A stretch of 64,000 nt of DNA, taken from NCBI GenBank assembly GCA_965248435.1, contig OZ252100.1, forward strand, positions 2,688,001 through 2,752,000. Reading direction: 5' to 3'. Shown here in pieces: positions 39,688-44,341 of the stretch (within the stretch, counting starts at the first letter, position 1; each line of letters begins with the position of its first letter). A program made the position numbers and the translations under genes. This stretch comes from Candidatus Latescibacterota bacterium. GTDB taxonomy: Bacteria; Latescibacterota; UBA2968; GCA-2709665. The notes beneath the pieces are model-generated. The model saw only the letters and a program-made list of their open reading frames with translations. It was not told where the DNA came from and ran no database searches.

Positions 39688-39768
39688 GCTTGACAACCGG
39701 AACTCGACGCACCATCATTTCCGTATCGACCGATATCTCCGCACGACTCTTTGAAGGCAGAATTCCAC

Positions 39769-41040
39769 ATGGATGATCTCGAAAACCAGAAAAATCAGCT
39801 CTTCTCGGAGCTGGCTGACTTGCGTAGGCAACTGACCGATCTGAGGGCCGCCGTATCGGATCAGGGAACGATCGAGGAGTCGCTCAGACAGAGCGAGGAT
39901 CGCTACCGGGCAGTTACCGAAAACGCCTTCGCCGGCATCACTATCACCGATCCGGATGAAAATATCACATTCGCCAATCCGGCCGCGGTGAGGATGCTGG
40001 GCTACACAAAAGACGAACTCCTGGGTGTCAACCTCTCGAAGTTGACTGATCCGAATGAATTCTCGAGGTACCGGGAATTTACGAAACAGCGGAAAAGAGG
40101 CGTGGAGAACCAGTATGAAACGCATCTCTACAGGAAGGACGGCGAGCGGATCAGTGTCCTCGTTTCCGTCTCCCCACTCTTGGATCTCCAGGAACGTCTG
40201 GAGGGCATTCTTGCCGTGGCCGTGGACATTACGGACCACAGACGTGCCGAAGAGGAACTTCGGAAGGCGAAAGAGGCTTACACTGAAAGACTCGAAGAAA
40301 TGGTCAGGGAACGAACGCGTGAACTCGAAGAGGCCCAGACGCAGCTGATTCACTCCGAAAAGCTCGCCGCGATGGGTAAGCTGGCAGCCGGTGTGGCTCA
40401 CGAGATTAACAATCCTGCAGGAGTGCTTTTGATGAAGCTGAAGTTCCTGCTATCAACTGCGGAGGAGGCGGGAGTCCCTCAACGAGCGGTTTCGAGCCTG
40501 CAGGTCTCAGTGGATCAGGTCGAGCGCATCCAAAAGATTGTCGAAAGCCTGCTCACGTTCTCGAGACAGCCCGAAGGAATCCCGGTTCCCACGTCCATCA
40601 ACCACGCAGTCGCGACGGCACTGCGGTTGACGGAGCATACCCTGTCCTCCCGCCGCATCGAACCGGAGCTCGACCTGGACCAGAGCCTGCCCGAGGTCTG
40701 TGCGGATCCGGCCGCGCTCGAGCAGGTCGTGATCAACCTGCTCAACAATGCCTCGGATGCCATGCCTGAAGGCGGTCGTCTGAAGGTGAGGACGTGGAAC
40801 GCATCGAAAGATGGGTGGGTTTACCTGTCTGTGGAGGACGATGGCGTGGGCATCCCGTCGGACTACCTGAGCAAGGTATTCGATCCTTTCTTTACGACCA
40901 AGCAGGTGGGAGAGGGAACCGGACTGGGTCTCTCGATAAGCTATGGAATCATAGAGAAGCTCGGAGGTCGGATCGAGGTTCAGAGTACCCCGGAAGAGGG
41001 CTCAACATTTACTGTCAAGCTTCCTGTCAAGAGGGGATAG
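39769..41040 (+). CDS. Cytoplasmic PAS-domain sensor histidine kinase
   Basis: PAS/PAC (FANPAA, RKDGE, DIT), AHEINNP H-box, N, G1, F and G2 boxes; no TM helix. Confidence 0.93.
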   Translation: MDDLENQKNQLFSELADLRRQLTDLRAAVSDQGTIEESLRQSEDRYRAVTENAFAGITITDPDENITFANPAAVRMLGYTKDELLGVNLSKLTDPNEFSRYREFTKQRKRGVENQYETHLYRKDGERISVLVSVSPLLDLQERLEGILAVAVDITDHRRAEEELRKAKEAYTERLEEMVRERTRELEEAQTQLIHSEKLAAMGKLAAGVAHEINNPAGVLLMKLKFLLSTAEEAGVPQRAVSSLQVSVDQVERIQKIVESLLTFSRQPEGIPVPTSINHAVATALRLTEHTLSSRRIEPELDLDQSLPEVCADPAALEQVVINLLNNASDAMPEGGRLKVRTWNASKDGWVYLSVEDDGVGIPSDYLSKVFDPFFTTKQVGEGTGLGLSISYGIIEKLGGRIEVQSTPEEGSTFTVKLPVKRG

Positions 41041-41043
41041 ATC

Positions 41044-42426
41044 GTGGGGAAGGGACGAATTCTGGTGATCGACGACGAACCGACCATGCTCGAGGCCTGT
41101 GATGAAACCCTTTCCTACCATGGCTATGACGTCCGACTGCAGGACGTCGGCAGTGATGCAATCGAATTGGTTCGACAGGAAACCTTCGACCTTGTGCTGA
41201 TCGATCTCAAGATGCCGAACGTAGACGGGATCCAGATCCTCAAACAAATAAAGACCATCGACAAGAATGTGATGGCCGTCATGATCACCGGTTTTCCAAC
41301 GATAGCCACTGCGGTCGAGGCGGTCAGGCAGGGAGCCTACGACTACCTTCCAAAACCGTTTGCGCCCGATCAGCTCCTCATCCTCGTTGATCGCGCCCTC
41401 TCTCGCAAAAGACTGACCGAAGAGAACCTGCTGCTGCGGAAGTCTCTCGGGCACGGACCCGATTTCGAAGGAATCATCTACAAGAGTCGCGCGATGGAAC
41501 GGGTCCTGGATTTGATCGGAAAGGTGGCCGACAGCGACAGCAGTGTCATCATCCAGGGGGAAACCGGTACAGGGAAGGAGCTCGCAGCCAGGAGTCTCCA
41601 CAGGAATAGTCCACGAAAAGACCACCTATTCCTGCCCATCAACTGCGGCGCCCTGCCGGAGCATCTTCTGGAAAGTGAACTGTTCGGCCACGAACGTGGG
41701 GCATTCACCGGAGCCTACACGAGGAAGTCCGGATTGCTGGAAACCGTTCAGGGCGGGACCGTTTTTCTGGATGAAATTTCAACGCTCAGTTTGAGCCTGC
41801 AGGTGAAACTTCTGCGGGTACTCCAGGAGCGGCAGATCCGCCGCGTAGGCGGGAAGGAGGACATCGACATCGATATCCGCGTCATTTCCTCCACGAATGA
41901 AGACCTCGAAGATGCCGTCGCCCGGGAGGCCTTTAGAAAGGACCTCTACTATCGGCTCAACGTCATTACGATTACTTTGCCCCCCCTGCGTGAGCGCGTT
42001 GAAGACATCTCTCTCATCGCAGAGCACTTCCTGGATGGGCTCAACACGGTGCACAGGAAGGTCGTTGAAGGCATATCCAGGGAGGCCCTGGAGATCCTTC
42101 AGTCGTACCGCTGGCCGGGCAACGTCAGGGAACTTGAGAACATACTGGAGAGGGCGTTTCTCCTCACAGATTCAAGTGTGATCCAGGCGGCTGATCTACC
42201 GGCAACCCTGAAGCACACCGATTCCACGATCAGCGTCGACACGCGCCTTCCTTTTTCGACCGCGAAAAAGGTCTACACTGAGCCCTTCGAGCACGAGTAT
42301 CTGACCAGGCTCCTCGAGGAATCGAACGGAAACGTCACCTTAGCTGCGCGGAGAGCGGAGATGCATCGATCCTCCTTTCAACGCCTGCTCAAGAAGCACG
42401 ATATCCGATCCAGGGAATTCCGGTAA
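41044..42426 (+). CDS. Sigma54-dependent response regulator (NtrC/AtoC family)
   Basis: Receiver DLKMP, GETGTGKE, ESELFGH..GAFTGA, WPGNVREL, Fis-type HTH. Confidence 0.95.
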   Translation: MGKGRILVIDDEPTMLEACDETLSYHGYDVRLQDVGSDAIELVRQETFDLVLIDLKMPNVDGIQILKQIKTIDKNVMAVMITGFPTIATAVEAVRQGAYDYLPKPFAPDQLLILVDRALSRKRLTEENLLLRKSLGHGPDFEGIIYKSRAMERVLDLIGKVADSDSSVIIQGETGTGKELAARSLHRNSPRKDHLFLPINCGALPEHLLESELFGHERGAFTGAYTRKSGLLETVQGGTVFLDEISTLSLSLQVKLLRVLQERQIRRVGGKEDIDIDIRVISSTNEDLEDAVAREAFRKDLYYRLNVITITLPPLRERVEDISLIAEHFLDGLNTVHRKVVEGISREALEILQSYRWPGNVRELENILERAFLLTDSSVIQAADLPATLKHTDSTISVDTRLPFSTAKKVYTEPFEHEYLTRLLEESNGNVTLAARRAEMHRSSFQRLLKKHDIRSREFR

Positions 42427-42673
42427 GTCTGAAGCATGAATGCGGCAGTGCAGCGTTTACTGAGACACCGAGATCAGCGGGCCGGAATGGAATCAACTAT
42501 TTGTAAAACAAGGATATATAGTCTTCAATCTCAAATCCTTCGATGGAGTGTCGAAAAACCGCCGCAACTTTGGAGCGATTTCCATTATTCTCTCCCACCA
42601 CGCTTTTCTGAAGAACTTCATATATATTAAATAAAAACAAGATGTTAAGATCTCTTGTGTGCATCTCGCATCC

Positions 42674-42688
42674 TGGCACAAGGCTTGC
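42674..42688 (+). promoter_or_regulatory. Sigma54 (-24/-12) promoter
   Basis: TGGCAC-AAGGC-TTGC matches TGGCAC-N5-TTGC. IHF-like sites upstream at 42491..42503 (AATCAACTATTTG) and 42635..42647. Confidence 0.8.
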
Positions 42689-42699
42689 GATTGCGTAGG

Positions 42700-42832
42700 G
42701 CCGATCAACCGTTTCGAGTGTCATAGGTCACTCGGTCAGTACCCGGCTCTGCCCAGGTGATCGAAGACTGAATTCGGTTGTCGAGTAAACAAAGGGAGAG
42801 CAGTCAGTTGTTTCGGCTGCTCTCCCTTTTTT
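42700..42832 (+). ncRNA. Candidate sigma54-dependent structured small RNA
   Basis: Starts at the predicted +1; three nested stems; ends in an intrinsic terminator; no credible ORF. Confidence 0.6.
42791..42832. terminator. Intrinsic terminator (probably bidirectional)
   Basis: AAAGGGAGAGCAGTC-loop-GGCTGCTCTCCCTTTTTT. Confidence 0.9.
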
Positions 42833-42889
42833 CCTGAACGCCTCGAAGGAGGCGATCAGCAAGCGGTGTCATTCGTGCACGCTACGGCC

Positions 42890-43339
42890 TCAAGGGCTGC
42901 TCCCAGCGATCTCTGTAAATCGAATGTTCAGCCCGGAAATCAATCTTTCTCCTCTGAATTCCTTGAAGACTACCTTCACCTGCACGTTCTCCTCTTTTTC
43001 GAAATCGGCGCTGTAAAAAACAACCTCATACGAACCCTCGCGAGTGATCAGCGCAAGCGCCCTCGATTGGTAAAGACCCATTTTCGACACGAGTGTGTCC
43101 CTCATGTCCAGAAAAACAGACTTGCGGATTTGGCTCTTCATATTCTCATCAAAATATCTCGAAAATTCCTCATACTCCGCTTCGTTGAATGCCTGAAGCA
43201 GGTTATCTACGACCGGATCGGCGTAGTTCAGGATCCTCTGCCCCTCCTCTCCCATCGGCTCCACCACCACTGCCCCCTCTTCCACACAGGCCGTCAGGAA
43301 ACAGCACACCCAGAGTGCTCCTCTCAAACCTCTATTCAC
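42890..43339 (-). CDS. DUF3887-like lipoprotein
   Basis: GTG start with GGAGAG RBS; lipobox FLTAC; FSRYFDENMK, YSADFEK, LISGL. Confidence 0.7.
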   Translation of the reverse strand: MNRGLRGALWVCCFLTACVEEGAVVVEPMGEEGQRILNYADPVVDNLLQAFNEAEYEEFSRYFDENMKSQIRKSVFLDMRDTLVSKMGLYQSRALALITREGSYEVVFYSADFEKEENVQVKVVFKEFRGERLISGLNIRFTEIAGSSP

Positions 43340-43489
43340 AGGTCTCTCCGGAAGCGGTCCACATCGCCGAGGGCCCCTGCTTCTTTTGCTCTTCGAACTG
43401 AATCTGTTTGGAAATCGACGAAGTCGGACGTAATATGGGGCAAGCCACATTCAAATACGTCCATAATATAGAAAAAAAGGAGATTCTCC

Positions 43490-44341
43490 GTGATCAATTT
43501 CCCCTGCTCGTCATTCACCTGGAAGTCGCGTCCGCATACCCCTGACCCCTACTTTAAATATTCGGGCGGATTTGTGGGAGATCCTGGCCAGGCCTACCAG
43601 GTGAGATTCAACCTCGAAGCCGCGTGCGAAATTCGAGACGAAGCCACTGACCACGTCGCTGAGCTGTTCGTGGGCGCCCCCTGCCGAACGGAATATACGA
43701 TCGGCAAACGGAACCTGTTTCAGATCCCCAGTTCCGAATTCCGGTTCGCCTTCAGCCGCGAACGCAGACTCAGCATCGCCAGGCGCCCCAGCAATGAGCA
43801 GGAAGACGTATCCGTCAAAACACACGACACCTTTCTGGATCACGAAATCGATATTCGCACCTTTCCAGAGTCGGACGAGCTGTCTGACGTAAACGGCATC
43901 GTCCGGGCCACCCTCGGTAAGGACCTGATGAATGCGCGGTCCACCTACCGGGATTCCGATCGCGGGCTCACGATTTCGGTGGAATATCCGGTCAACCTGA
44001 TCAACACGAACGAGGCGGACGGCGAATTTCAGATCTGCACCGGCCCTGTCATCGTGCCCGATCTGAACACCTGGGACGGCCGCGACGTCACCCGCGTCTT
44101 CTTGGCGCACGTAGCCATCACCGCTTTCGACTGGGTCGAGTTCATCCTGCGCCGCGAAGTAGAAACTTCCGAATCAGAAAAGGAATGGTTGGACAAGCCT
44201 CGGGGCCGGGACCGCCAGGAACTCCTGGATCCCAACAATAAGCCCCCTGGTTACCCGTCCAGGAGGCCATGGCCAACTGTCTATAACGAGATCTTGGAGT
44301 TCGAGGCCACAAACGTCATTCTGCGAACGGATAATCCATAG
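43490..44341 (+). CDS. Hypothetical protein (283 aa)
   Basis: AAGGAG RBS; long ORF followed by a terminator. Confidence 0.75.
   Translation: MINFPCSSFTWKSRPHTPDPYFKYSGGFVGDPGQAYQVRFNLEAACEIRDEATDHVAELFVGAPCRTEYTIGKRNLFQIPSSEFRFAFSRERRLSIARRPSNEQEDVSVKTHDTFLDHEIDIRTFPESDELSDVNGIVRATLGKDLMNARSTYRDSDRGLTISVEYPVNLINTNEADGEFQICTGPVIVPDLNTWDGRDVTRVFLAHVAITAFDWVEFILRREVETSESEKEWLDKPRGRDRQELLDPNNKPPGYPSRRPWPTVYNEILEFEATNVILRTDNP

Follow-up and report, generated by a model that had tools for sequence, protein, structure and literature searches.

In Pseudomonas, the gene of the NtrC-family regulator of the CbrA/CbrB system is reportedly followed by a sigma-54 promoter from which a non-coding RNA, CrcZ, is made that ends at a terminator and is an output of the two-component system; CrcZ is said to measure about 400 nt, to carry repeated A-rich motifs and to sequester Hfq/Crc. 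A small RNA that depends on sigma-54 and the activator is also reported for GlrK/GlrR of the enterobacteria, namely GlmY, which resembles its sibling GlmZ and is said to act as a decoy for the protein that handles GlmZ. In Vibrio, sigma-54 and the NtrC-type regulator LuxO are reportedly required by the genes of the Qrr RNAs, one of which adjoins the regulator gene, and the Qrr RNAs are said to be Hfq-dependent, multi-hairpin and base-pairing.

Small RNAs also arise from the 3' ends of mRNAs. A review (PMC9438474) refers to 3'UTRs as a playground for sRNA evolution, includes CpxQ, SdhX and NarS among the 3'UTR-derived small RNAs and describes a pair from two species, MalH and MicX, that share a locus, MalH being processed and MicX having its own promoter. 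A limited literature search, which covered the descent of bacterial sRNAs from pseudogenes, their exaptation, and UTR-derived sRNAs in connection with sigma-54 and response regulators, returned no description of a 3'UTR that became an sRNA gene by loss of the coding part, and none of co-existing 3'UTR and stand-alone forms that share a duplicated sigma-54 promoter region.

The locus described here lies in a window of 64 kb (the whole stretch of DNA that was analysed) from a genome designated G000. Like CbrAB-CrcZ, it has an NtrC-family regulator gene followed by a sigma-54 promoter and a non-coding unit with a terminator; unlike CrcZ, the predicted RNA is a rod of 133 nt with a single conserved C-rich loop and is a paralogue of an mRNA 3'UTR. 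With LuxO-Qrr it shares the position of a putative sRNA gene adjoining an NtrC-type regulator gene, and it differs in that there is no Rfam match and no Hfq was found. GlmY/GlmZ provides the nearest precedent for a reading in which the RNA would mimic an mRNA tail and might act as a decoy, although the sibling here is an mRNA 3'UTR rather than an sRNA, and sequence and structure are not similar. The three systems had been named as precedents in an earlier note on this DNA; they hold for the logic of the wiring and fail for sequence and structure (no Rfam match) and for the partners (no Hfq, CsrA or ProQ found). As in the 3'UTR-derived sRNAs (CpxQ, SdhX, NarS, MalH/MicX), the element occupies the 3' end of an mRNA, with which it has the terminator in common, but, unlike in MalH/MicX and the others, the 3'UTR form and the stand-alone form occur in one genome and the stand-alone form has a copy of the parental sigma-54 promoter.

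The kinase/regulator pair and the promoter behind it

The features of the locus are the following (positions are those of the window).

39751-41040, plus strand: PAS-domain histidine kinase, 429 aa (Pfam PAS_9, HisKA, HATPase_c)
41044-42426, plus strand: NtrC-type sigma-54 activator, 460 aa (Pfam Response_reg, Sigma54_activat with E 4.6e-69, AAA_lid_14, HTH_8)
42436-42470, plus strand: upstream conserved island 1, TGAATGCGGCAGTG...TGAGACAC (alignment with the region 5' of a second, CHRD, promoter)
42557-42584, plus strand: upstream conserved island 2, AACCGCCGCAAC-N7-CGATTTCCA (common to both promoters)
42674-42688, plus strand: sigma-54 promoter, -24 TGGCAC / -12 TTGC, TGGCACAAGGCTTGC (exact consensus match)
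42700-42786, plus strand: rod-like hairpin of about 28 pairs with internal loops (minimum-energy fold and homologues)
42740-42749, plus strand: apical loop UACCCGGCU(C) (all four copies have CCCGGCTC unchanged)
42791-42832, plus strand: intrinsic terminator, 15-bp hairpin (42791-42829) and T6 (fold and sequence)
42890-43450, minus strand: DUF3887 gene, convergent, context only (Pfam DUF3887, E 5.1e-12)

The activator combines a receiver, an AAA+ sigma-54 interaction domain and a Fis-type helix-turn-helix, and its closest relatives are found in the genomes G006 (71% identity), G004 (68%), G060 (66%) and G054 (58%); G004 also holds a frameshifted copy of the regulator that is 77% identical over residues 3-282. 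Sigma-54 promoters are recognised by GG and GC doublets at -24 and -12 with a fixed spacing (TGGCAC-N5-TTGC), and the exact pattern occurs once in the 64-kb window, as TGGCACAAGGCTTGC, 248 nt past the end of the activator gene. Dinucleotide shuffles of the window contained on average 0.06 matches to the consensus, with at least one match in 6 of 100 shuffles. Over the whole genome there are 29 exact matches, where about 11 would be expected by chance (arithmetic, equal base frequencies). The genome encodes rpoN (Sigma54_DBD at G000:C1:264316-264786, 199.5 bits). The earlier reading, which placed a consensus sigma-54 promoter directly behind a PAS kinase/NtrC-type pair, is supported. The same holds for its statement that the promoter serves no protein at the window locus, since the next gene (DUF3887) lies on the minus strand and is convergent. 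Transcription from this promoter is predicted to start around 42700, at the base of the rod.

Activator-binding sites of sigma-54 promoters are typically sought some 100 to 250 nt upstream. The 12-mer AACCGCCGCAAC of island 2 has two occurrences, and no more, in the genome of 5.67 Mb; they lie 117 and 114 nt 5' of two near-identical sigma-54 promoters, of which the second precedes the CHRD gene discussed below. Island 1, which contains a word like GC-N-GCAGTG that is also found 3' of the regulator gene in G004 and in reversed orientation in G054, is a candidate activator-binding site. Between the islands and the promoter, in an AT-rich stretch, lies AAACAAGATGTTA (42635-42647), which resembles an IHF site with one mismatch to the consensus. 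In strain X5, which comes from a different study, is ~98% identical and has the same gene-less layout, the 12-mer and the -24/-12 letters are intact; position 42577, in the second half of island 2, is altered there, and a change of G to A at 42689 gives TTGCA.

A second copy in the 3'UTR of a CHRD gene

A BLAST search of the genome returned a 77%-identical stretch at G000:C1:2953827-2953900 (E 5e-7), which belongs to a second copy of the unit's 3' part at G000:C1:2953792-2953939. A covariance model built from the two copies, with the terminator included (model R1), gave these two scores of 162.7 and 153.4 bits and detected nothing else in the genome. The second copy (copy 2, with its rod homologue at G000:C1:2953788-2953892) begins 14 nt past the stop codon of a gene of 875 aa (G000:C1:2951147-2953774) that encodes four CHRD domains and a C-terminal T9SS sorting domain (Por_Secre_tail) and lies 220 kb from the window locus. 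About 210 nt 5' of this CHRD gene, at G000:C1:2950934, we found TGGCACAAGGTTTGC, which is the same as the window promoter at 14 of 15 positions. The regions of ~250 nt 5' of both promoters align in islands, and the sequence around these has diverged strongly. The similarity of the window unit to the 3'UTR copy starts at ~42690, which puts the predicted transcription start at the base of the rod. The shared promoter region and the shared tail thus identify the window unit as a composite in which a copy of the CHRD promoter region is fused to one of the 3'UTR and terminator; the 5'UTR and the coding sequence of the CHRD cassette are missing from it.

In the CHRD cassette, the upstream region, the sigma-54 promoter, the CHRD gene, the rod and the terminator are enclosed between the two units of a direct repeat of 175 nt (93% identical; G000:C1:2950520-2950694 and 2954003-2954177, or L142 4520-4694 and 8003-8177), each of which corresponds to the 3' end of a gene for a Lactonase (7-bladed propeller), and two tandem lactonase paralogues are situated just 5' of the cassette. 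It looks as if the cassette has taken the place of most of a third lactonase copy. An ORF of 28 codons (G000:C1:2951100-2951186) in the 5'UTR of the CHRD mRNA has, by eye, a strong AGGAGG site, and its TGA overlaps the GTG start of the CHRD gene (GTGA); the ORF may encode a coupled leader peptide.

The same arrangement was observed in relatives. In G004, which belongs to the same family but to a different genus, the order is kinase, regulator (the 77% identical, frameshifted copy), TGGCATACGACTTGC, a receiver-only gene of 129 aa, a CHRD/T9SS gene of 963 aa (59% identical to the gene of G000), rod and terminator. Its 3'UTR folds into a long rod (z = -8.0) with CCCGGCTC at the apex and a terminator of similar sequence, the terminator stem AGCAGTC...GGCTGCT being common to the window copy, copy 2 and G004; the rod (L138 9659-9765) starts 27 nt past the stop codon and is the single copy in that genome according to a rod-only model (R2). 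The regulator orthologue of G004 shifts frame at a run of eight C (L138 5690-5720; G004:C1 ~3032690-3032720), where the frame may truly be shifted or the single-contig assembly may have a homopolymer error. In G005, of a third genus, a rod lies 9 nt past the stop codon of a related gene with a T9SS tail on contig 256 (L213 277-384, minus strand). The 3'UTR element is thus located between stop codon and terminator in copy 2 (14 nt), G004 (27 nt) and G005 (9 nt); the window copy has no coding sequence upstream in the unit. The stand-alone form was found only in this species (G000 and strain X5), and G001, of the same genus, lacks both the regulator orthologue and the CHRD gene, judged by the queries used.

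The rod is absent, and plain terminators are present, 3' of the CHRD relatives on contig 66 of G005, in G038 and G058, and for one of the two genes in each of G056 and G054. No additional true copy was found with R2 over 151 genomes of the phylum; one match in G042 (23 bits) lies inside an ORF of 560 aa, is without the loop and was rejected. Similarly, R1 gave no true copy over 61 relatives, its six matches outside G000 being driven by the terminator (for instance, the site in G012 is the end of a coding region with its terminator, and the match in G004 is the terminator of the true homologue), and no match beside 12 loci with regulator relatives. Scans for the 21-nt apical word, which yielded 30 loci in genome contigs and 42 in metagenome contigs (metagenome rows to E 0.01), were set aside as chance matches, since R1 matches at the pattern sites do not extend beyond the stretch of the model that surrounds the pattern; the single R1 match away from a pattern site in these scans scored 12.6 bits (L060).

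Among these relatives, the CHRD gene on contig 66 of G005 (L207 1-1060), which has no rod, stands behind a different sigma-54 activator (31% identical in its C-terminal part), an exact TGGCAC-N5-TTGC and a small ORF. In G054, the regulator relative of 58% identity is followed by the sigma-54 consensus TGGCACAGGCATTGC (L208 = G054:C231, 670-990, minus strand), which precedes an ORF for a hydrophobic peptide of 44 aa and another small ORF, and not a CHRD gene. No sigma-54 consensus was seen directly 3' of the regulator orthologue in G006.

On the minus strand the terminator hairpin of the window unit is followed by TTTGTTT, and it can thus also serve the convergent DUF3887 gene. That the unit would be nothing other than a bidirectional terminator or 3'-end stabiliser for DUF3887, next to a sigma-54 match that is orphan or due to chance, we consider very improbable. 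The hairpin does stand between an A-rich run and T6, and by the arithmetic given above chance could produce about 11 of the 29 consensus matches in the genome, but the rod at 42700-42786 falls outside the terminator, homologous elements are always located 3' of CHRD/T9SS genes on the same strand, and the window promoter has 14 of 15 bases, as well as the unique 12-mer at the same distance, in common with the CHRD promoter.

A predicted rod-like RNA with a conserved loop

The predicted transcript (42700-42832, 133 nt) folds at -57.6 kcal/mol (z = -5.2), and none of 200 shuffles folds as well. It consists of the long irregular hairpin at 42700-42786, a short linker, the 15-bp hairpin and T6, in agreement with the structured, ORF-less unit ending at a strong T6 terminator that the earlier note had described. 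A simple terminator scan has no listing for 42791-42829 because the loop counts 9 bases and the scan permits 3 to 8. A multi-stem junction had been proposed for this RNA, and its three stems are all present in the sequence, at the coordinates given for them. Nevertheless, the three-way junction reaches only -20.6 kcal/mol, against -31.3 kcal/mol for the rod-like minimum-energy fold, and was rejected. In the three homologues the outer stem keeps 8 of 9, 6 of 9 and 9 of 9 pairs, whereas 1, 4 and 1 of the 6 pairs are kept in the second stem and 4, 2 and 3 of the 5 pairs in the third. The outer stem is thus supported by the homologues, and the junction with its second and third stems fails on energy as well as on retention of pairs, which makes the RNA a rod.

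Conservation of the pairing was evaluated on the four copies. In an alignment of four sequences fitted to a model that was built from three of them, 86.5% of the 96 cells are paired and 12 of the 24 pairs have changed on both sides, two values that were reached by none of 500 shuffles; in slid controls, with the partners moved by 1-3 columns, 28-50% of the cells are paired and 1-3 pairs are double-changed. For instance, the loop-closing stem of G004 is altered on both sides (pairs 48-62 and 49-61) with the CCCGGCU loop kept. An independent analysis of three sequences (MAFFT/RNAalifold) gave 41 pairs, of which 9 show a compensatory change; a MAFFT alignment of all four was poorly registered and gave a weak consensus. 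On these comparisons the rod qualifies as an evolutionarily conserved structured RNA element, the pairing of which appears to be kept by compensatory changes.

No relevant Rfam match was obtained for 41500-44000 on both strands (cmscan, 4227 families, E <= 10). The single row returned, a viral frameshift model with 17.3 bits on the terminator, was judged to be due to chance, and the absence of a match to CrcZ, Qrr, GlmY/GlmZ or any other family is in line with the new sRNA that had been suggested. There is no ATG within the predicted transcript and no conserved ORF inside it, copy 2 having indels relative to copy 1 (the window copy). Two small ORFs in or near the unit, at 42436-42630 (plus strand) and 42497-42724 (minus strand), carry a 1-nt deletion in X5 (depth 2) and were rejected. 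These results also bear on the view that a leader or riboswitch acting in cis has here lost the gene that it preceded, or else that the locus holds a gene for a small protein. A structured RNA that ends in a terminator does resemble the off state of a riboswitch, and short ORFs do overlap the region. All three homologues, however, follow stop codons and none precedes a gene, and Rfam offers nothing at E <= 10 save the chance match; a small protein would have to be made from a transcript without ATG, in the face of the indels of copy 2 and of upstream ORFs that are interrupted in X5 (depth 2). We find both variants scarcely credible.

Origin of the unit and its possible role

Because the RNA copies the 3'UTR of a gene that has the same promoter, the unit looks like an sRNA gene made by loss of a coding part. 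On balance, we favour the reading that it encodes a transcribed, functional small RNA that is controlled by the regulator and derived from a 3'UTR. The homologies, the agreement between the promoters, the order of the genes and the conservation of the fold were observed directly; transcription, control by this particular regulator and any function in trans are inferred. The earlier note had regarded the unit as an sRNA that is the output of the adjacent two-component system. Promoter, pair and structure agree with this; what did not stand is its free-standing nature, as the unit is a paralogue of the CHRD 3'UTR and promoter. In G004 the same kinase/regulator pair directly precedes the protein-coding CHRD cassette. 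A protein is thus likely to be the system's output elsewhere, and the unit in the window could be what a deletion left behind.

In the latter case, the CHRD cassette would have been duplicated or moved to the lactonase locus and the coding part of the resident copy deleted, leaving a promoter and a 3' end without a role and an RNA that is noise. We think this possible but rather unlikely. It would account for a unit made solely of parts that also flank the CHRD gene, for the restriction of the stand-alone form to one species and for searches in which no target or partner was found; moreover, the convergent DUF3887 gene would be reason enough for the terminator to persist, and what is conserved in the promoter could be older than the deletion. 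Harder to reconcile with an inert remnant is the state of the rod. Copies 1 and 2 differ at 24 of 82 aligned rod positions, yet copy 1 retains its fold (z = -5.2) and 23 of the 27 pairs of the copy 2 fold hold in it, compared with 16.3 +/- 2.2 under random substitution (P ~0.001); in the reverse test 23 of the 28 pairs of the copy 1 fold hold in copy 2 (P ~0.005), the constraint detected in this way being one that cannot be assigned to either copy. A mutation test based on energy alone was not significant (P 0.06-0.12). In addition, the promoter core is perfect amid strongly diverged surroundings, and the deletion brings the base of the rod precisely to the predicted start.

The comparison with strain X5 points the same way. 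Over 901 nt, X5 and the window differ by 12 substitutions and 3 single-base indels, with no change in the 133 nt of the RNA and none in the 15-nt promoter core, against 11 changes in the 315 nt of the other non-coding flank; of the coding parts, the regulator gene has 3 changes over 227 nt and DUF3887 has 1 over 211 nt. A one-sided Fisher test against the flank yields p = 0.02 when the whole RNA is counted and p = 0.07 when the rod is counted by itself; the X5 contigs have a depth of 2, and two of them meet inside the RNA, at 42742-42744.

For a small RNA controlled by the regulator, the following course can be envisaged. The ancestral layout would have been that of G004: PAS kinase, NtrC-type activator, sigma-54 promoter, (a small receiver gene and) a CHRD/T9SS gene, rod and terminator. 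The present genome would have kept the full cassette 220 kb away and lost, at the regulator locus, everything from the transcription start to the stop codon. The phosphorylated activator would bind the shared upstream islands and open both sigma-54 promoters, so that the CHRD promoter would yield an mRNA with the rod in its tail, and the window promoter the rod and terminator alone, as an RNA of ~133 nt. The CCCGGCU loop on its covarying stem would be the likely contact for a partner, which could be a protein or else an RNA rich in G, and the small RNA would act in trans, as a sibling or competitor, on whatever recognises the 3'UTR of the mRNA. The most plausible modes of such action would be that of a sibling of a processed 3'UTR RNA or that of a competitor for the binder of the CHRD mRNA tail, as GlmY is reported to be for GlmZ. 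A more specific version, in which the 3'UTR-born RNA is a co-induced mimic or competitor of the CHRD mRNA tail that works through the CCCGGCU loop, having arisen by duplication of the cassette and clean loss of the coding part in a genome where no Hfq, ProQ or CsrA gene was found, is put forward tentatively, and we would sooner doubt it than adopt it.

As to partners, searches for Hfq, CsrA and ProQ genes gave no Pfam match in G000 (97.5% complete), with control genomes positive in each search. A mode of action like that of CrcZ, Qrr or the CsrB type can therefore not simply be transferred. The genome has no sequence that is perfectly complementary to the 13-nt loop region other than the antisense of the two copies, and the 15 sites that complement the loop with one mismatch have no tie to start codons. 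When whole molecules were folded as duplexes, shuffled targets did as well as the 5'UTR of the CHRD mRNA (G000, G004) in pairing with the rod (P 0.54, 0.91 and 0.80).

Post hoc, we noticed words centred on CCGG at the 5' ends (first 5-20 nt) of the sigma-54 transcripts predicted for the CHRD cassettes, which complement the rod loop CCCGGCUC: GAGCCGG in G000 (G000:C1:2950960-2950975), GGCCGGG in G004 (L138 6185-6200) and UCCGGGG in G005 (L207 650-665). The duplex folding against shuffled targets lent this pairing no support.

The origins of bacterial sRNA genes are mostly inferred afterwards, and this genome appears to hold both states: a parental one, with promoter, gene and a rod in the 3'UTR, and a derived one, in which the same promoter is joined directly to the rod, with G004 showing the ancestral layout beside the regulator. 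The CHRD/T9SS protein is likely the protein output of the kinase/regulator pair. Were the unit only a scar, its interest would be modest and would lie in the history of this genome. Provided that the RNA is expressed and works in trans, the locus would be a dated and concrete example of how a 3'UTR becomes an independent regulator gene under the same two-component control, in a genome without detected genes for the usual RNA chaperones, and it would give initial access to regulation by RNA in a lineage that has not been cultured.
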